From IMG/VR virus record IMGVR_UViG_2711768001_000007: DNA of 10,858 nt; one strand, given 5' to 3'. The stretch comes from a virus. Taxonomy: Duplodnaviria > Heunggongvirae > Uroviricota > Caudoviricetes. Shown here piece by piece: positions 1,463-10,858 of the stretch (positions are counted from its first letter, which is position 1; each line of letters starts with the position of its first letter). Under the pieces are notes generated by a model. That model saw nothing but the letters and a program-made list of their open reading frames with translations, did no database searches and had not been told where the DNA came from. A program made the position numbers and the translations under genes.

Positions 1463-1842
1463 GAATAGATCTTAGAATATCGGGGAATATCTGCAAATAT
1501 CTTCTCTTTATATGTGTCAACTATCGAAAAAAATTGAAATGTCTTCTTCTGAGTTCTTATTCTCTGTTTCTTGATTGTTCCAACACCTGATGGTTTATCT
1601 ATTTGTTTTTAATGAGGTAATTCAGGTGACATGCCAAATGACGACATTTTTTGTTGCGTCGCTTAAAAACTCGTGACACGATTTTAAACACTAACGAGCT
1701 TCTACGAACCTTAGCGAACAAAGCCTTTAGTATGGTTGTGTTTTTAATTTAAGAGGTGAAAAAGAATCTAAGTAATATCCGATCTCATATATCTACAGCT
1801 AAGAGAAAAGTTTATATACGTAATTTTTATGTAGGTTTTTGT

Positions 1843-2052
1843 ATGCGTGAAATAAATGAAGATCGCGTAATCCGTGAGGATGAATGTCGTAAGTTAACTG
1901 GAGTGTGTCGCACTACACGCTACGAACTGGAGAAAAAAGGGAGCTTTCCGTCTCGCCGTAATCTTGGTGGGCGTTCTGTAGGTTGGCTGCTGTCCGAGGT
2001 TATGGAATGGGTTAAAAGCCGGGATCGCATTAATTCAGGTAAGGCAGCGTAA
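1843..2052 (+). CDS. alpA: AlpA-family (prophage CP4-57 regulatory protein-like) HTH regulator/excisionase
   Basis: 70-aa product from ATG 1843 (RBS-like TAGGT upstream). C-terminal GGRSVGWLLSEVMEWV matches the AlpA pattern (GVKSVGWIEAEIDEWL in E. coli AlpA, from memory). The track ORF begins at GTG 1756, but the N-terminal extension looks non-coding. Confidence 0.7.
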   Translation: MREINEDRVIREDECRKLTGVCRTTRYELEKKGSFPSRRNLGGRSVGWLLSEVMEWVKSRDRINSGKAA

Positions 2053-2166
2053 AGGGGAGCATATGACATATAAAACAAAGACGACCGGGGGCGGTCGCCA
2101 ATGGATACACACTAAACTTGAACGCATCACCAACAATGCCACATTTGCGGCTGGTGGGCAATGTGA

Positions 2167-2340
2167 TCAGTCAGATTTGGTTCGTTCCAAGGTTTGCAAC
2201 GAGAGCTTTTTCCTGTGCTCTTTAAGGAATTTCTCAAGAGCAAAAGCACATGGCGCGAATCTTTCTGATTCATGCTCTATCTTTCTGCGCCGTCTTTTCC
2301 GTGCCGGTGATAATGTTTTGGTCAATTCTTTATCGGTCAT
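2167..2340 (-). CDS. Small basic hypothetical protein (57 aa from Met-6; 62 aa if started at 2355)
   Basis: Minus-strand ORF 57 bp downstream of the RHH gene. AGGA lies 7 nt upstream of the ATG at 2340. Lys/Arg-rich (RKRRRRK). No recognised family. Confidence 0.4.
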   Translation of the reverse strand: MTDKELTKTLSPARKRRRRKIEHESERFAPCAFALEKFLKEHRKKLSLQTLERTKSD

Positions 2341-2397
2341 TGTGTTGTCCTGCATAGCAATGCGCCGTAGTTACTCACACCACGGCGCTGATAGTGA

Positions 2398-2595
2398 TTA
2401 TTCTGATTCTTTGGCCTTCCGGCGCTGTTCATATTTTAATTTGCGTCCACAGGCATCTAAGACCCATGCGGAAAAATTAGCACTAGGATTAGTTAATTTT
2501 TCTTGTTCAACGCTGGCATCAATCCCATCTATAAGCTCATGTGGGAATCGAATATTTTTCTTTGCTGATTTGTTGTTTGTGTTACCGCTAGACAT
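2398..2595 (-). CDS. Ribbon-helix-helix (Arc/MetJ/CopG-like) DNA-binding protein; candidate element repressor
   Basis: 65-aa ORF with strong RBS (GAGGTG 6 nt upstream). Segment IRFPHELIDGIDASVEQEKL...SANFSAWVLDA follows the P22 Arc pattern (FNLRWPREVLDLVRKVAEENGRSVNSEIYQRVMES, from memory). Sits divergently from an operator-bearing promoter region. Confidence 0.6.
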   Translation of the reverse strand: MSSGNTNNKSAKKNIRFPHELIDGIDASVEQEKLTNPSANFSAWVLDACGRKLKYEQRRKAKESE

Positions 2596-2622
2596 TGATG
2601 CACCTCACTTAAATGGACTTTA

Positions 2623-2702
2623 TGGGCGCACACAATACAGCAAAAAAAATGAGATGTTAAGTATTGACATGTGCGCACACATGATTTTAATCTGTGCGCA
2701 CA
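2623..2702. promoter_or_regulatory. Divergent promoter/operator region: TGGGCGCACA (2623-2632), TGTGCGCACA (2670-2679), TGTGCGCACA (2693-2702); rightward promoter -35 TTGACA 2664-2669 / -10 TTTAAT 2686-2691; leftward promoter -35 TGTTAA(rc) 2655-2660 / -10 ACAATA(rc) 2632-2637
   Basis: Two perfect 10-bp palindromes spaced 23 bp centre to centre, plus a 9/10 third copy 47 bp away. They overlap back-to-back sigma70-like hexamers with 16-17 bp spacers. Confidence 0.55.
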
Positions 2703-2800
2703 GTTTGAGTTTTGTCACTCAAATTAAGCAACGCCCCGCAGTGCTCGCAACACATGCAGGGCGTCTAACCACCAACGATAGCAAGAGTATCGAGGTAGCT

Positions 2801-3004
2801 ATGAGAAATCATACCACACACCCGCAAGGGCGGGACTCGCACAACCTGAATAAATATATCTGGCGTTTTATCGCCCTGAGCACGGCACAACCGCGCGTGA
2901 TTACCATTGAGGCCAGCAGCGAACAGGAAGCACGCCAGCAATCCCCGGCTGGCTGCGTGATGGTATTCGCCGCCCGTATTCGTCAGGGGGGGTACCATGC
3001 CTGA
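2801..3004 (+). CDS. Hypothetical small protein (68 aa), first ORF of the rightward early operon
   Basis: ATG 2801 preceded by GAGGT (2792-2796). In frame with the 3' end of the long track ORF 2063-3004. End overlaps the next ORF start. Low confidence. Confidence 0.3.
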   Translation: MRNHTTHPQGRDSHNLNKYIWRFIALSTAQPRVITIEASSEQEARQQSPAGCVMVFAARIRQGGYHA

Positions 3005-3317
3005 TATGTCAAATTACCAGTACCTGATTAATCCGCATTTTAACTGTGAGCATGATATTGCTAAAAAGGTTTATTCCGCTGCGGATGGGGCTACTGACAA
3101 TATATCAATGGCTGTTGCGTCAATTGGTAGCCTGATGTGGCATGCGTCAGAAAATGAGGACTATGACGAAAAGGCCATGCGCATTGATATGGGTAATATC
3201 GGTTTGTTACTGGCAATGCTTGGACATTTTGATATTTCGTTACGGTGCACCATTGAAAATGCCACAGATGCATTAAATGCTATAAAGAAAGCGAATACTG
3301 ATTCAAATCGGGGATAA
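2997..3317 (+). CDS. Hypothetical protein (106 aa)
   Basis: ORF with G-rich RBS (GGGGGGG) upstream; codirectional with the replication gene. No recognised motif. Confidence 0.45.
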   Translation: MPDMSNYQYLINPHFNCEHDIAKKVYSAADGATDNISMAVASIGSLMWHASENEDYDEKAMRIDMGNIGLLLAMLGHFDISLRCTIENATDALNAIKKANTDSNRG

Positions 3318-3323
3318 ATAATC

Positions 3324-3623
3324 ATGAGAACGTATTTATCTGGCTTGACTGCCAGCGGTTATGCACACCCCCAAATTATCCCCGGCGCTATTTATCTGGA
3401 TAAGAACGGTAACAGAGTAACGGTAAAAGAACTGATGTTTGACCGTGTGTATTTTATCCGTGATGGCTATTCATTTCTTAGTTCGCTGAACGTGGAGATC
3501 TTTATTTGCAGATTCCGGCGGGAAATCCCGACTTCCAGAAATAACCATGTGTCACGTGTGGATGTGGATAAAAAACTACAGGAACTGAAAAACATGATTG
3601 CCGCGTGGAGAGAGCAGAAATGA
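3324..3623 (+). CDS. Hypothetical protein (99 aa), translationally coupled to the replication gene
   Basis: ORF whose stop overlaps the rep start (ATGA at 3620-3623). No recognised motif. Confidence 0.5.
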   Translation: MRTYLSGLTASGYAHPQIIPGAIYLDKNGNRVTVKELMFDRVYFIRDGYSFLSSLNVEIFICRFRREIPTSRNNHVSRVDVDKKLQELKNMIAAWREQK

Positions 3624-5437
3624 AAAAAGCGCCAAATTTAAAACACCAGCCGCGTGACAAAATGACGGAAGTCATCATTTTTGCGGGTAGTGATGCGTGG
3701 GCACATGCGAAGCAGTGGCAGGAACAGGACGGGCGACTGGCTGGCGATAACGTGCCACCTGTCTGGCTTGGAGAGCAACAACTTGCCGAACTGGACAACC
3801 TGCAAATCGTACCGGATGGACGCTATCGCGTGCGTCTCTACCAGGCGGGGTTATTGCGTCCGGGGCTTGTTAATACCATCGGGCAGAAACTGGCAGCGGC
3901 AGGTGTCAGGGATGCTGATTATTACCCTGAAGGAATGCACAGCCAGAAACGGGAGAACTGGCGCGAATATCTGGAACGTGAGCGGGGAGAGCTGACGGAA
4001 AAGAAAAAGGTAGTTGAACTGCCTGTAAAGAAAAAAGAGCGGGTAAAAGACGATAACGCTTCATCACTGGCGCTTAACCAGATGGGAGCAAGTCAACGCG
4101 GCGAAGTTCTCCTGGCACATTATGGCGGTGAACTGGCGATTCATGCCGACTCTGACACTGTTCACCATTACAACGGCGTTGTATGGGAGCCAGTACAGGA
4201 TAAAGAATTACAGCGAGCTATGGCGCAGATTTTCATTGATGCGGAGATCAGCTATTCGCAGAACGCCATTAAATCGGCGGTCGATACCATGAAGTTAAGT
4301 TTGCCTGTAATGGGGAATACAGCCCGTAACCTGATTGGATTCAGTAACGGGGTATTTGATACCAGAACAGGTAATTTTCGGCAGCATAACAAAAACGACT
4401 GGTTGTTAATTGCCAGTGAATTACCTTTCAGCCCACCAGCAGAGGGGGAAACGCTGGCAACACATGCGCCGAATTTCTGGAAGTGGTTACGCCGTTCGGT
4501 GGCTGAGAATGACCGCAAGGCGGATCGCGTACTGGCTGCATTATTCATGGTGCTGGCGAACCGGTACGACTGGCAGTTATTCATTGAGGTAACAGGTCCA
4601 GGGGGAAGTGGTAAAAGCGTGATGGCGGAGATTTGCACCATGCTGGCGGGTAAGGCTAATACAGTATCAGCGAGCATGAAGGCGCTGGAAGATGCAAGGG
4701 AACGCGCGTTAGTGGTTGGCTTTTCGCTGATTATCATGCCGGATATGACCCGCTACGCTGGTGATGGGGCGGGAATTAAGGCTATTACAGGCGGTGACAA
4801 GGTGGCAATCGACCCAAAACATAAAGCCCCATATTCAACGCGTATCCCGGCAGTAGTGCTGGCGGTTAACAATAACGCTATGTCATTCAGTGACCGCAGT
4901 GGGGGGATCTCGCGCCGTCGGGTGATATTCAATTTTTCGGAAGTTGTACCGGAGAACGAACGCGATTCAATGCTGGCGGAAAAAATAGAAGGTGAGCTGG
5001 CGGTAGTGATTCGTCATCTGCTTACACGGTTTGCTGACCAGGACGAAGCCAGACGCCTTTTATATGAGCAGCAGAAATCAGAAGAAGCACTCGCGATAAA
5101 GCGTGAAGGTGATTCGCTGGTGGACTTCTGCGGCTATCTCATGGCGTCGGTAATGTGTGATGGCCTGTTAGTGGGTAATGCTGAAATTGTGCCATTCAGC
5201 CCGCGCAGGTATCTCTATCATGCCTATCTGGCTTATATGAAGGCACATGGGTTTGGTAAACCTGTAACACTGACGCGCTTCGGTAAAGATATGCCGGGGG
5301 CAATGGCGGAATATGGCAGGGAGTATATGAAACGGAAAACGAAGCACGGTTTGCGTTCAAACGTGACACTGACGGAGGAATCAGAAGACTGGATGCCATC
5401 ATGTGTATCGGTCACTAATGACGATAGCAAAAATTAA
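3620..5437 (+). CDS. Replication initiator: D5_N-like region plus SF3-type P-loop helicase (P4-family primase C-terminal-like)
   Basis: Walker A GPGGSGKS and Walker B-like LIIMPDM. D5_N-like segment IGFSNGVFDTRTGNFRQH...LPFSP. Start taken at ATG 3620 (GGAGAG RBS) rather than GTG 3605. Iteron array begins 14 nt after the stop. Confidence 0.85.
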   Translation: MKKAPNLKHQPRDKMTEVIIFAGSDAWAHAKQWQEQDGRLAGDNVPPVWLGEQQLAELDNLQIVPDGRYRVRLYQAGLLRPGLVNTIGQKLAAAGVRDADYYPEGMHSQKRENWREYLERERGELTEKKKVVELPVKKKERVKDDNASSLALNQMGASQRGEVLLAHYGGELAIHADSDTVHHYNGVVWEPVQDKELQRAMAQIFIDAEISYSQNAIKSAVDTMKLSLPVMGNTARNLIGFSNGVFDTRTGNFRQHNKNDWLLIASELPFSPPAEGETLATHAPNFWKWLRRSVAENDRKADRVLAALFMVLANRYDWQLFIEVTGPGGSGKSVMAEICTMLAGKANTVSASMKALEDARERALVVGFSLIIMPDMTRYAGDGAGIKAITGGDKVAIDPKHKAPYSTRIPAVVLAVNNNAMSFSDRSGGISRRRVIFNFSEVVPENERDSMLAEKIEGELAVVIRHLLTRFADQDEARRLLYEQQKSEEALAIKREGDSLVDFCGYLMASVMCDGLLVGNAEIVPFSPRRYLYHAYLAYMKAHGFGKPVTLTRFGKDMPGAMAEYGREYMKRKTKHGLRSNVTLTEESEDWMPSCVSVTNDDSKN

Positions 5438-6403: not shown

Positions 6404-6428
6404 AAGCCGGAGCAATCCGGCTTTTTTA
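6404..6428 (+). terminator. Rho-independent terminator-like hairpin after the SSB-like gene
   Basis: Stem AGCCGG (6405-6410) / CCGGCT (6417-6422), 6-nt loop, then T-run 6422-6427. Confidence 0.6.
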
Positions 6429-6497
6429 TGGGTCCTCCCGGTGTAGTGACCTGCCACGGGGCGGGAGCGTCGCGGAAAAAGGCTGGTTTTTGCATTT
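6429..6497 (+). repeat. Conserved ~70-bp element, copy 1 (about 92% identical to 8964-9035)
   Basis: GGGTCCTCCCGGTG...CCACGGGGCGGGAGCG.CGCGGAAAAAGGCT.GTTTTTGCATTTTCA. Internal dyad CTCCCG/CGGGAG and GGTG/CCAC. Differences between copies cluster in the putative loop. Confidence 0.7.
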
Positions 6498-6688
6498 TCA
6501 TGGCGGCGGCAGCATGTGTAGTAATTTATTGATAATTAAAAGTTATTTCTGTTTTCACCTGTACAATATTTTTTTCTCCCTGTCATTAGACCAGTTTGCA
6601 ATTAATTGAAATATATAAATAAATCTGTTTTTCACCTGCCAGGTGGAGTTGCCTGTGTCAAAACGTGTTCAGATGGCGGGATATTTAT

Positions 6689-6813: not shown

Positions 6814-7023
6814 GTGAGTTGTATTAATGACCTGAACACGGGCGATATCAGGGGTGGTTCCGTTCATCTGGATGCGCAGACCGTTATGCGCCTTAAGCAG
6901 TACAGGATCGACCATATAAATCATCATCCTGACCAACCATTACCAGGTGTGGCGCAGATTGTCAGACATGCCGTAAACACCTGGCTTAATCAGAATGGTT
7001 TTGCATCGGTGGGGGAACAATGA
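6814..7023 (+). CDS. Hypothetical small protein (69 aa), possibly RHH-like, translationally coupled to the protease-capsid gene
   Basis: GTG start 6814 with strong RBS AAGAGGA (6800-6806). Stop overlaps capsid start (ATGA 7020-7023). RHH assignment is a guess from a beta-strand then two-helix pattern. Confidence 0.45.
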   Translation: MSCINDLNTGDIRGGSVHLDAQTVMRLKQYRIDHINHHPDQPLPGVAQIVRHAVNTWLNQNGFASVGEQ

Positions 7024-8933
7024 ATCGCTGGTACACCATTAAGGCGGCGGATGTTCGCGGAGCGGCGGATATATCTATCTATGAGGAGATTGGCGGCTTC
7101 GGTGTTACTGCAAAGCAGTTCGCGGAAGACCTGAAAGCCCTTGGCGATGTTTCACATATCAATCTGAGGATCCATTCACCAGGTGGTGATGTGTTTGAAG
7201 GCATCGCCATCTATAACCTGCTACGGAATCATCCGGCAGACATTACGGTTTATATCGATGGTGTTGCGGCTTCAATGGCTTCGGTGGTCGCAATGGCTGG
7301 CGATCGTGTTGTGATGCCGGAAAACGCCATGATGATGATACATAAGCCGTGGGGTATCTCTGGCGGAAATGCTGGTGATATGCGTGATTATGCTGATTTG
7401 CTGGATAAGGTGGAAACCGTGTTAGTCCCTGCTTATGCCAGAAAAACGGGCAAATCAGCACAGGAAATTACCGCCATGCTGGAAGATGAAACCTGGATGG
7501 ACGGGAAAGAATGCCTTAAGCACGGTTTTGCTGATGAATTGTTGCCATCCGTCAGAGCAATGGCGCGAATTGAATCGAAGCGCACAGGAGATTTTTTACA
7601 TATGCCGGAAACCATTAAAGGAATGATTACACCGCCACAGGGAGCGGCAAATATTGCTGGTAATGAACAGAAACGCATCAATGGAATAAGTGAAGTGTTT
7701 AGCCTGTTCGGCAGTCGTTACGACGGGATCAAAATGGCGTGTCTGGAAGATGCATCATGTACACCGGAAATGGCCCGTGAAAAGCTGTTGAACGAGCTGG
7801 GGCGCGAGTCCACGCCATCCAATAAAAATACCCCGGCTCATATCTATGCCGGAAACGGAAACATAACAGGTGATGCAATTCGTCAGGGGCTTTATTCCCG
7901 TCTTGGGTATGAACGGCCTGAACGAGGCAACCCTTACGCGATGATGAGTCTTTTTGAAATGGCCCAGGCATCACTGGTTGATCGTGGTATCACTGTGAGC
8001 GGTTTTATTAATCGCTCGCAGGTTGTTAATGCGGCTTTTACACACAGCAGCAGTGATTTTTCTCATATTCTGGCTGGTGGGGCTGAAAAATCTGTACTGA
8101 AAGGCTGGCAGGACAGCGGCGAAACGTTCCAGAAATGGACGCGTACCGGTTCGCTTTCAAACTTTCATGAAGCAAAGCGCGTTGGTCTGAATGGTTTTTC
8201 AAAGCTGGATAAAGTACCGGAAGGTGCGGAATATAAATACATCACCACCAGCGATAAAGGTGTACCTATTGCGCTGGCCACGTACGGGAATATATTTTCC
8301 GTTACCCGTCAGGCCATTATCAACGATGACCTGACCCAGTTAACTACAATCCCCATGGCGATGGGACGCGCAGCTGCCAGAACAGTTGGCAATCTGGTTT
8401 ATCTCCTGTTAACCAGCAACGGCAAGTTTACGGATGGTAAAGCGTTATTCCATGCCGATCATAAAAATCTTATTGCGAAGGATATGGACATGGAGGGGCT
8501 TAACGAAGCCCGTAAGCTGATGCGCCTCCAGGAAGACGCTAACGGCGATTCGCTGAATATTACCCCTGCATTTGTCCTGGTCCCCGCCGCGCTGGAGTCT
8601 GCCGCACATCGCGCCATTCTGTCATCGTCATCACTCTTTCCGGTTGATGGCGTGGGCACTATCAATCAGAACCCCGGCATCATTAACGTGGTGAAAGATA
8701 TGGCGGAGGTAATCGTTGAGCCACGTCTTGATAAAGCCAATAACAAGGAGTGGTATGTGGCAGCGGCGAAGGGTATGGACACGATAGAGGTCGCTTATCT
8801 TGATGGTATTGATACGCCATATCTTGAGGAGCAGGAGGGCTTTACTGTTGATGGCGTCGCCTGGAAGGTGCGCATAGATGCAGGTGTCGCGGCCCTCGAC
8901 TATCGCGGATTACTGAAATCGAGTGGAGCATGA
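7020..8933 (+). CDS. Fusion protein: N-terminal ClpP-family prohead protease plus C-terminal probable phage major capsid protein
   Basis: N-terminal ~190 aa align with ClpP: IHSPGGDV vs INSPGGVI, GVAASMAS vs GQAASMGA (catalytic Ser), MIHKPW vs MIHQP (catalytic His). The C-terminal ~440 aa have capsid-like character (ending ...GVAALDYRG); that part is a judgement call. Confidence 0.8.
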   Translation: MNRWYTIKAADVRGAADISIYEEIGGFGVTAKQFAEDLKALGDVSHINLRIHSPGGDVFEGIAIYNLLRNHPADITVYIDGVAASMASVVAMAGDRVVMPENAMMMIHKPWGISGGNAGDMRDYADLLDKVETVLVPAYARKTGKSAQEITAMLEDETWMDGKECLKHGFADELLPSVRAMARIESKRTGDFLHMPETIKGMITPPQGAANIAGNEQKRINGISEVFSLFGSRYDGIKMACLEDASCTPEMAREKLLNELGRESTPSNKNTPAHIYAGNGNITGDAIRQGLYSRLGYERPERGNPYAMMSLFEMAQASLVDRGITVSGFINRSQVVNAAFTHSSSDFSHILAGGAEKSVLKGWQDSGETFQKWTRTGSLSNFHEAKRVGLNGFSKLDKVPEGAEYKYITTSDKGVPIALATYGNIFSVTRQAIINDDLTQLTTIPMAMGRAAARTVGNLVYLLLTSNGKFTDGKALFHADHKNLIAKDMDMEGLNEARKLMRLQEDANGDSLNITPAFVLVPAALESAAHRAILSSSSLFPVDGVGTINQNPGIINVVKDMAEVIVEPRLDKANNKEWYVAAAKGMDTIEVAYLDGIDTPYLEEQEGFTVDGVAWKVRIDAGVAALDYRGLLKSSGA

Positions 8934-8937
8934 CAAC

Positions 8938-8963
8938 AAGGGCGGCGATAGCCGCCTTTTTTT
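8938..8963 (+). terminator. GC hairpin plus T-run after the capsid gene; terminator-like, and also contains a 9-nt match to lambda cosN
   Basis: Stem GGCGGC (8941-8946) / GCCGCC (8951-8956), loop GATA, T-run 8957-8963. GGGCGGCGA (8940-8948) matches the first 9 nt of lambda cosN GGGCGGCGACCT as I recall it. Confidence 0.5.
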
Positions 8964-9035
8964 ACGGGTCCTCCCGGTGGGGTGGTCTGCCACGGGGCGG
9001 GAGCGGCGCGGAAAAAGGCTAGTTTTTGCATTTTC
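8964..9035 (+). repeat. Conserved ~70-bp element, copy 2 (about 92% identical to 6429-6497)
   Basis: See copy 1. Same position relative to a GC hairpin plus T-run. Confidence 0.7.
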
Positions 9036-9190
9036 ATTCGTCATCATCATCTTTCTATAATGTTGAATTTTAAGTGTTTTTATTTTTGGTATGTTAATTT
9101 TGCTTATTTTGTGTTCAACATACAGCGCGTTTTTTGACCTTTTTTAAAAGATATTTGCAAGATGCATTTTTAAAACATTCTGGAGCGGGT

Positions 9191-9676
9191 ATGGATCGGG
9201 AACTGAAAAATCTGATGCTGAACATTAACCAGCTGGCGGCGATAGCGGGAATATGTCGCCAGACTGCGGCGGCAAGGCTGAAAAATATCCAGCCAGCCGG
9301 AGGACATGACAAGCTGAAACTCTATCGGGTGACTGACATTCTGACTTGTTTTCTTGATCTTCCCGTTCCGGCATCACTGGAAGAAATGGAGCCACACGAC
9401 CGTAAGGCCTGGTATCAGTCCGAACGTGAGCGCCTCAAGTTCGAACAGGAAACGGCGCAACTCATACCCGCCGATGATGTGCGAAAAGAGATGGCTATAT
9501 GGGGAGAAATCGTAAGCGAGGAACTGGAAAAACTCCCCAGTATTCTGGCACGTGATGTTGGGCTTAAACCGATGGCAGTAAACAGAGTGCAGTCAATTAT
9601 TGACGATTTGTGTAATCAGATTATCAGCCGGATGGTAAAAAATGACGTAGTGAATGAGGTCGCAAAACAGGCATGA
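9191..9676 (+). CDS. Terminase small subunit, lambda Nu1-like
   Basis: From ATG 9191 (GGAG RBS 9183-9186). NQLAAIAGICRQTAAARLKNIQPAGGHDKLKLYRVTDIL parallels lambda Nu1 KKQLADIFGASIRTIQNWQEQGMPVLRGGGKGNEVLYDSAAVI (from memory). The track ORF starts at TTG 9134, which I consider less likely. Confidence 0.7.
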   Translation: MDRELKNLMLNINQLAAIAGICRQTAAARLKNIQPAGGHDKLKLYRVTDILTCFLDLPVPASLEEMEPHDRKAWYQSERERLKFEQETAQLIPADDVRKEMAIWGEIVSEELEKLPSILARDVGLKPMAVNRVQSIIDDLCNQIISRMVKNDVVNEVAKQA

Positions 9677-10788: not shown

Positions 10789-10858
10789 ATGATAGTTATT
10801 TATCATCTAGTGTTCGCGGGTGTTCGTGGTAGTGTTTTGTGTGCATTCATCGCTATGA
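10789..10858. repeat. Right terminal direct repeat, 70 bp, identical to 1-70; putative att core (attR side)
   Basis: Exact identity to 1-70. Confidence 0.8.

Follow-up and report, generated by a model that had tools for sequence, protein, structure and literature searches.

A putative ribbon-helix-helix repressor cassette nested antisense to an eta-like reading frame in an Escherichia coli phage satellite

The global repressor of Gram-negative phage-inducible chromosomal islands (PICIs) is described as ‘unclear’ in the literature. A short leftward gene cassette in one such island of Escherichia coli raises the question of what might occupy this role and how it could be overridden once the island is induced. 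The cassette consists of two minus-strand open reading frames (ORFs) at positions 2167-2595 of the IMG/VR record IMGVR_UViG_2711768001_000007, a stretch of 10,858 nucleotides that was analysed at its full length and is referred to below as the window. By its gene organisation, the window is a Gram-negative PICI of E. coli. We assign a probability of about 70% to the reading, based on sequence comparison, that this region is the regulatory switch of a PICI-type E. coli phage satellite, with a 65-aa ribbon-helix-helix (RHH) protein as the repressor and alpA-driven transcription as the override.

A candidate repressor and its palindromic operators

Both minus-strand ORFs of the original prediction were recovered (Table 1). 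They lie in the same frame, separated by one TAA and 57 nt, and are flanked by a promoter-like site, P_L, and by a terminator-like hairpin and T-run that is predicted to be the end of the leftward transcript. The first ORF, which encodes the 65-aa protein, is preceded by a GAGG Shine-Dalgarno (SD) sequence (2606-2603) 7 nt upstream of its ATG. The protein belongs to the YlcI/YnfO family, with matches to Pfam DUF3950 (PF13132; 28.3 bits, curated cut-off 25) and to NCBIfam YlcI_YnfO_N (NF041551; 59 bits, cut-off 30), and the NCBI Prokaryotic Genome Annotation Pipeline (PGAP) gives the ORF the gene name YlcI/YnfO. It has both the size (~60-70 aa) and the IRFP...NFSAWV..C motifs of the family, and nine residues are invariant across a 39-member family alignment (R16, F17, P18, F41, S42, W44, V45, C49, and K52). 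Relatives were found across Enterobacterales; literature that mentions the YlcI and YnfO names does not describe a function for the family.

An AlphaFold model built on the 39-sequence alignment has an extended N-terminus followed by two helices (mean predicted confidence, pLDDT, 73.8). This is the arrangement of solved RHH proteins, in which an N-terminal strand precedes two helices, and the closest solved folds are RHH antitoxins. On this model, we accept that the 65-aa protein has an RHH fold, as had been proposed from the sequence; the accompanying proposal that it is an Arc/Mnt protein was rejected. Pfam Arc (PF03869) gave no match to it at E<=10 and reached at best E=0.038 and 0.14 with other alleles of the same slot, hhalign gave 5% probability against Arc, and the family that does match is YlcI/YnfO (DUF3950) instead.

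The palindromes that had been noticed next to the cassette are real. Allowing at most one mismatch, TGTGCGCACA occurs at three sites in the 10.8-kb window (0.47 expected by chance), all of them within 2623-2702, on two divergent promoter-like sites. One of these sites (O3) falls on P_L, and the other two (O2 and O1) fall on P_R, a near-consensus site that faces rightward and was read directly from the sequence; the promoter scan requires A at position 2 of the -10 element and therefore left P_R unreported. The P_R -35 element (TTGACG or TTGACA) is kept across allele classes and genera.

The comparative set, composed of 38 metagenomic loci and several genomes, revealed that the conserved 57-aa partner gene stands downstream of at least 12 different small RHH alleles. 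Nine alleles were tested with NCBIfam: six are YlcI/YnfO members, whereas the other three, which are Arc-like, give sub-threshold matches to that model. A distinct repeated palindrome (8-mer) characterises each of 13 allele classes, located at the same positions around conserved promoter elements, and a cross-count matrix of the top 8-mers against the allele classes is essentially diagonal. Two different islands that carry the same allele (L072 and L079) have GGTAATTA(CC) in common, and the palindrome of the O157 allele is GGTAATTACC. Across genera, the residues of YlcI-family proteins just N-terminal to the strand track the operator core: KKN before IRFP accompanies TGTGCGCACA (Escherichia, Rahnella, Klebsiella, and Erwinia), YKG accompanies GTGTTTAAACAC, and TKG accompanies GGTGCACAAACAC. 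This covariation is the pattern expected of cognate repressor/operator pairs; taken with the three palindromes on the promoters, it speaks strongly, if indirectly, for operator binding. Judged from the sequences compared, the RHH gene and its operators are an exchangeable module that exists in many alleles, each with its own palindrome.

The RHH allele of the window is present with its operators in 69 of 5426 complete E. coli genomes. The same cassette is carried by EcCICFT073 (L082 243-1053; NC_004431.1, E. coli CFT073, ~1380242-1381052), where a 59-aa RHH allele (YlcI/YnfO by PGAP name) is found with the 57-aa partner; two GTGGGCCACAC operators accompany them, and the opposite strand has an eta-like ORF of 341 codons. 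Since EcCICFT073 is a model PICI, the idea is directly testable. On these comparisons, the 65-aa protein is a good candidate for the repressor of Gram-negative phage-inducible islands. If so, a concrete role, as a sequence-specific RHH repressor, would be gained for DUF3950/YlcI/YnfO, including two y-genes of E. coli K-12 and a lambda ORF, and a repressor/operator module available in many specificities would explain the silence of the islands and possible mutual immunity between them.

The antisense eta-like frame and the proposed switch

The entire cassette is nested antisense within a long kept-open ORF, an arrangement absent from the original prediction. The ATG of this eta-like ORF lies 11 nt past the alpA stop codon, behind an AGGGGAG SD sequence (2053-2059), and its last 48 residues constitute an Icd/Kil-like domain (NF033153 at residues 265-308, E=1.5e-18). 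The same domain is encoded by a nested in-frame ORF of 67 aa, which is predicted to be the first product of the P_R transcript. The eta-like ORF shares wobble positions with both minus-strand genes; it extends through these, first the partner and then the RHH gene, and onward across the operators and the P_R leader.

In all 13 allele classes, no stop codon interrupts this shared-wobble frame opposite the RHH gene, the partner, or the spacer that separates them, nor does one occur in the allele-specific operator DNA; the frame is open for >200 codons in 24 of 35 YlcI loci from other genera. In most classes with an assignable ATG, this start codon follows the stop codon of an upstream alpA-type gene by ~6-14 nt, and at its 3' end the frame is either fused to the Icd-like gene or ends within ~10-20 nt of its start. 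When synonymous codons were resampled, only 4-77% of trials, depending on the class, preserved the open frame; after shuffling, the non-coding parts hardly ever remained open, a result that is overstated where coding sequence for the Icd-like protein had been included among them. At the amino-acid level, the antisense frame is less well conserved than the minus-strand frames, and therefore selection seems to act on the openness of the frame rather than on its product. In L077 and L078 the cassette is tandemly duplicated (~2049-4463), with one copy degenerate, and the antisense frame is open for ~800 codons.

The closest parallel is the immunity region of phage P4. P4 Eta (214 aa) starts at the end of, and overlapping, the alpA homologue vis, and its residues 161-208 match NF033153 (E=1.4e-20). 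One published account places the P4 constitutive promoter and the CI RNA inside eta, describes Kil as a truncated in-frame form of Eta, and states that termination is prevented when full-length eta is translated on transcripts from the upstream promoter, resulting in transcriptional read-through by which immunity is overridden (PMC10111431, citing Forti et al., 1999). Because the window and P4 have in common both this layout and the Icd/Kil-like C-terminal domain, the ORF at 2063-3004 is, by sequence, the counterpart of P4 eta/kil. In both, a long ORF runs from the end of alpA/vis across the immunity region to a nested in-frame Icd/Kil-like end, and an internal promoter (P_R, predicted, in the window) leads to early and replication genes. 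The two regions differ in that P4 relies for immunity on the CI RNA, the seqA/isrK targets of which are on the same strand, whereas the window has no such match; what is nested in its ORF, on the opposite strand, is a gene for a putative protein repressor together with the partner gene and operator-bearing divergent promoters.

The Rfam models C4, isrK, and c4-a1b1 gave no match at E<=1 in the window and none at E<=10 in 2560-2860, whereas the same search applied to P4 found all three (C4 74.9 bits, isrK 60.8 bits). When the leader of the P_R transcript was searched alone, C4 and isrK were unmatched, and only chance-level Rfam matches were obtained on either the window or the leader. The leader does contain a stable hairpin, for which a complementary RNA target of the loop was searched nearby and none was found; thus, there is no sign of pairing of the CI/seqA kind. 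The sequence types of this hairpin assort independently of the RHH allele. The suggestion that the satellite uses a protein where P4 uses an RNA is therefore apt in its analogy and for the window itself, although not as an exclusive choice, since six related loci carry both.

On this evidence, the RHH repressor would be made from P_L and, as a dimer or a dimer of dimers, would bind the three palindromes. Occupancy of O2 and O1, in the P_R spacer and at the start site, would keep the rightward operon off (the Icd/Kil-like gene, orf106, and the genes for the DUF4222 protein and the primase), and occupancy of O3 would allow the repressor to limit its own synthesis, because that operator lies on the P_L -10 element and start site. 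The partner would be co-transcribed downstream of the RHH gene, as far as the terminator-like hairpin at 2099-2070.

AlpA, which the helper phage induces, activates PICI genes as well as its own promoter (PMC6092414), and a Pseudomonas AlpA is a processive antiterminator (PMC7969949, PMC9371919). In the window, alpA is the upstream gene of the rightward unit and is convergent with the leftward cassette. Upon helper infection, AlpA-dependent transcription would start upstream of the cassette; the transcript from the alpA promoter, being translated through the eta-like ORF, would be protected from premature termination and would reach the replication genes despite the repressor, while head-on collision with transcription from P_L would silence the repressor. 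An antisense protein-coding cassette within a kept-open frame would extend the eta/kil principle known from P4, in which translation protects read-through.

A more ambitious version of this proposal, which we advance only tentatively and regard as possible rather than likely, holds that Gram-negative PICIs, EcCICFT073 among them, have in the YlcI/YnfO cassette their missing master repressor and the determinant of their immunity, with at least 12 heteroimmune specificities; that, nested antisense in the eta-like ORF, it is flipped by translated alpA-driven read-through (through bypass of P_R and collision); and that the partner is an arginine-rich nucleic-acid-binding guard against leaky read-through. 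RHH repressor/operator switches as a kind, and the eta/kil principle from P4, are already known. Relative to the searchable literature, in which subscription papers are largely not included, the role of YlcI/YnfO, the modular specificities, and the antisense nesting in an eta-like ORF of Gram-negative PICIs are new.

Table 1. Positions in the window of the genes and predicted signals of the putative switch region.
Feature	Position	Strand	Details
alpA (AlpA-family regulator)	1843-2052	+	Pfam PF05930, E=4.8e-16; PGAP coding sequence at these coordinates
313-codon eta-like ORF	2063-3004	+	spans the opposite-strand cassette in full, together with the operator region
Intrinsic-terminator-like hairpin and T-run	2099-2080 and 2079-2070	-	8 pairs, 6 of them G-C, followed by TTTGTTTTAT
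57-aa basic, helical partner (predicted)	2167-2340	-	conserved core ERFAPCAFALEKFLKE; homologue alignment
GC-rich intergenic hairpin	2362-2388	-	inverted repeat between the RHH stop codon and the partner start
65-aa YlcI/YnfO-family (DUF3950) RHH protein, proposed repressor	2398-2595	-	ORF list and profile matches
O3	2623-2632		TGGGCGCACA (1 mismatch); abuts the last base of the P_L -10 element and spans the predicted start site
P_L, promoter-like site	2632-2660	-	-35 TTAACA (2660-2655), 17-nt spacer, -10 TATTGT (2637-2632); consensus match
P_R, promoter-like site	2664-2691	+	-35 TTGACA (2664-2669), 16-nt spacer, -10 TTTAAT (2686-2691); near-consensus, sequence reading
O2	2670-2679		TGTGCGCACA; within the P_R spacer; extended palindrome 2668-2683
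O1	2693-2702		TGTGCGCACA; directly after the P_R -10 element, at the predicted start site; extended palindrome 2692-2703
Stable leader hairpin of the P_R transcript	2731-2764	+	compensatory changes in the stem among ~5 sequence types
Nested in-frame Icd/Kil-like ORF, 67 aa	2801-3004	+	own GAGG SD sequence (2792-2795); NF033153, PHROGs

The partner protein and rival explanations

Read from its first ATG, the partner ORF occupies 2167-2355 and encodes 62 aa; the second ATG (2340) is the start in all homologues, which gives the 57 aa originally predicted, and an AGGA SD sequence (2351-2348) lies 7 nt upstream of it. The product is basic (17 K+R; isoelectric point 10.3) and, in an AlphaFold2 model, all-helical (helices 17-32 and 34-61, pLDDT 70). 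It had been described as lacking a recognisable family, and indeed neither Pfam, NCBIfam, nor PADLOC contained a match; its sole match is PHROG 21027, which has no functional annotation. A tblastn search of 50,697 phage records gave no match, and an exhaustive hidden Markov model search of 1.84 billion representatives returned eight partner clusters, all of one narrow family, together with one spurious repeat protein. Homologues are 55-98% identical and ~57-67 aa in length; those below 50% identity keep the motif F/Y-x-P-C-x-F-A-L-E-x-F-L-K and have diverged in the remainder.

Partner DNA is present in 1465 of 5426 complete E. coli genomes (27%), and the partner is limited to Escherichia-lineage satellites, where it is unchanged under all RHH alleles. 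Among 35 YlcI loci from other genera, none contained a partner homologue, and at least 28 have the RHH gene alone (monocistronic). Since most YlcI loci in those genera lack it, the partner is, on this distribution, an accessory of the Escherichia lineage and not an obligate co-repressor. Neither of the two regulatory roles first suggested for it fared well: as an Mnt-like second regulator it is contradicted by its predicted all-helical structure and the absence of an RHH motif, and an operator-specific co-repressor is unlikely because the same partner accompanies at least 12 alleles with different operators. We infer that it acts on something common to all RHH alleles; we would guess, with little confidence, at nucleic-acid binding by its Arg/Lys-rich segment, which would help to hold the island in its silent state. 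The block kept under all RHH alleles starts at window position 2427 and includes the GC-rich hairpin between the two cistrons, which, being without a T-run, may tune their relative expression or stability.

The conservation of this second ORF might have another origin, namely the eta-like ORF, the terminator or hairpins, or an antisense RNA, in which case the 57-aa ORF would not be a gene and the leftward unit would be the RHH gene alone. Consistent with this, the coding signal is weaker than that of the RHH gene: codon-position variability is 0.21, 0.20, and 0.31 at positions 1, 2, and 3, a weak signal that is confounded by the overlapping plus-strand ORF, and that ORF would equally demand in-frame indels. 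RefSeq often omits the partner and annotates the long plus-strand ORF, with PGAP leaving the partner uncalled in four inspected records (the source genome L001, E. coli O157:H7 L079, H41, and H43), and the family of eight clusters is very narrow. Since both strands share their wobble positions, codon-position variability is ambiguous as a discriminator between strands, and dN/dS and BLOSUM scores were compared in the two frames in its place. These favour the partner, with a dN/dS of 0.27-0.34 in its frame against 0.41-0.47 in the overlapping antisense frame, and a higher BLOSUM score in its frame in 21 of 21 divergent pairs. The ORF, its ATG, and its AGGA SD sequence are intact in 39 of 39 loci (26 distinct sequences), the motif given above survives below 50% identity, and the ORF is called as a protein in CFT073 (RefSeq PGAP) and in PHROGs. 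We therefore regard the non-gene explanation as unlikely; the ORF probably specifies a real helical, basic protein, and its translation is, from these comparisons, quite likely.

If the partner is a protein, the cassette could instead be a type II toxin-antitoxin or addiction module, with the RHH protein as an autoregulating antitoxin and the 57-aa protein as a small island-stabilising toxin. Known RHH antitoxin/toxin pairs (CopG, ParD, VapB, and TacA) likewise have the RHH gene first, a small gene second, and palindromes at the promoter. Yet the partner, a 57-aa hydrophilic helix, is unlike any toxin, and no toxin or defence model (Pfam, NCBIfam, or PADLOC) matches it; PADLOC also returned nothing for the RHH protein. 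The pairing is not conserved outside Escherichia, given the solitary RHH genes of other genera, and two of the three operators lie on the promoter of the divergent replication operon rather than on that of the cassette. Moreover, the partner remains unchanged under RHH alleles with differing C-terminal tails (RRQRRKAKEQE vs QQRGIEPKG). An addiction module is accordingly very improbable, in keeping with the doubt already expressed about a toxin role for so small a protein.

It could also be argued that the RHH protein is a local autoregulator, or the regulator of an unrelated target, as lambda YlcI may be, and that control of the island rests with AlpA, together with C4 RNA where present. A number of observations favour this view or otherwise weigh against the repressor switch. 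Over-expression of AlpA alone sufficed to induce EcCICFT073 (PMC6092414), and both P_L and P_R are consensus matches only. In lambda-like phages, YlcI homologues lie near cos, in a different context and with no obvious replication operon to control, which implies that YlcI/YnfO proteins are not always satellite master repressors. A C4 RNA module coexists with the RHH-partner cassette in six relatives (L042, L046, L049, L066, L076, and L077), where it occupies a more distal part of the rightward operon and, in four of the six, is accompanied by isrK or c4-a1b1 targets; the RHH and RNA forms of immunity are thus not exclusive, and the RHH protein may be only one layer of control.

The fold assignment, too, meets contrary evidence, in that the strand is not formed in the monomer model, a Foldseek search of the model against the PDB gave no significant match (the best TM-score was to an RHH ParB, E=7.6), a profile of the family alignment matched no PDB sequence, and all links between curated RHH family profiles and the 39 members are sub-threshold. 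The profile searches suggested for placing the protein in the RHH superfamily thus yielded sub-threshold links alone, which are all consistent in direction: HicB_lk_antitox matches eight of the 39 members (best E=0.0021), and Arc (E=0.009), RHH_1, CopG_antitoxin, and NikA-like each match one. Against a purely local role stand the positions of O2 and O1, which coincide with the spacer and the start site of P_R, a near-consensus match (TTGACA, 16 nt, TTTAAT) that faces the Icd-like/primase operon, and the operator geometry, which all allele classes and the different genera have in common although their operator sequences differ. Control by AlpA with a merely local RHH regulator consequently seems improbable to us, and the repressor switch is the interpretation that we prefer.

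Relationship to known systems and further features of the island

Arc and Mnt of the P22 immI region are very small, autoregulatory RHH repressors, whose palindromic operators overlap promoters that lie close together. The strand and helix A of the window protein align with theirs in register (NLRWPREVLDLV vs NIRFPHELIDGI); the window protein differs in belonging to DUF3950, in its conserved N-terminal N-x-K-S arm, in having three 10-bp operators, and in its genetic context. Within its own family, YlcI (DLP12), YnfO (Qin), and the lambda ORF near cos are ~64 aa long and 41-43% identical to it (NF041551/PF13132), but they occupy the right end of lambdoid genomes, beside bor and terminase genes. 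The 64-aa homologue of lambda and its relatives is encoded on the leftward strand near the right genome end; phage O276 is one lambda-like example (L081 200-394).

Stl proteins are larger helix-turn-helix repressors that are inactivated by bound helper proteins. The Stl/Rpr genes of Gram-positive PICIs (SaPIs, the pathogenicity islands of Staphylococcus aureus) are divergent from the replication operon, and their products silence the island until a helper phage arrives (PMC6092414). The repressor gene of the window is likewise divergent from a replication operon, with a proposed silencing role; it differs in encoding a 65-aa RHH protein, the relief of which would come from alpA-driven read-through and not from a known anti-repressor.

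The nested arrangement also calls for caution in annotation, which is inconsistent in RefSeq. In many cases PGAP annotates the long frame, either as a gene or as a pseudogene, but omits the partner, or does the reverse. In E. coli O157:H7 (L079 8796-9740), both the RHH gene and the partner are unannotated, the long ORF being listed there as a fragmentary pseudogene for an Icd-like protein; in a 16.5-kb ‘phage’, vB_KppS-Ant (L075), only a 324-aa antisense ORF is annotated. PHROGs labels the Icd-like families (window 2801-3004; L080 8168-8584) as ‘transcriptional repressor’. This label was most likely inherited from a historical P4 coding sequence, ‘cI gene product (AA 1-137)’, in reality the 3' portion of eta, the true CI being an RNA.

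The first 70 nt of the window are identical to its last 70 (10789-10858), which indicates that it is a terminally redundant copy of a 10,788-bp circular element, either excised or packaged. The segment searched, 1700-3100, is 100% identical to E. coli chromosomal sequence, and in NZ_AP022482.1 the element is integrated between yljB/cspD and clpS. Its plus-strand genes encode a tyrosine integrase, AlpA, the Icd-like protein, a DUF4222 protein, a D5-type primase, a single-stranded DNA-binding protein (SSB), a ClpP-protease/major-capsid fusion, and a TerS-like DUF1441 protein. The assignment to Gram-negative PICIs follows from int, alpA, and the primase/replication genes in unidirectional order, from a size within ~10-15 kb, and from the presence of a subset of virion genes. 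A P4-type satellite was ruled out because sid, delta, and psu are absent.

Portal and large terminase genes are absent from the island, and its partial capsid module is unusual for a PICI. This module includes the ClpP-like prohead protease fused to a major capsid protein (7020-8933) and the DUF1441 protein, which matches terminase small-subunit PHROGs (9134-9676). An 80-nt direct repeat with a GC-rich hairpin (6422-6501 and 8958-9037; 91% identical) has one copy 3' of ssb and the other 3' of the protease-capsid gene, and could be a terminator, or a packaging or regulatory element.

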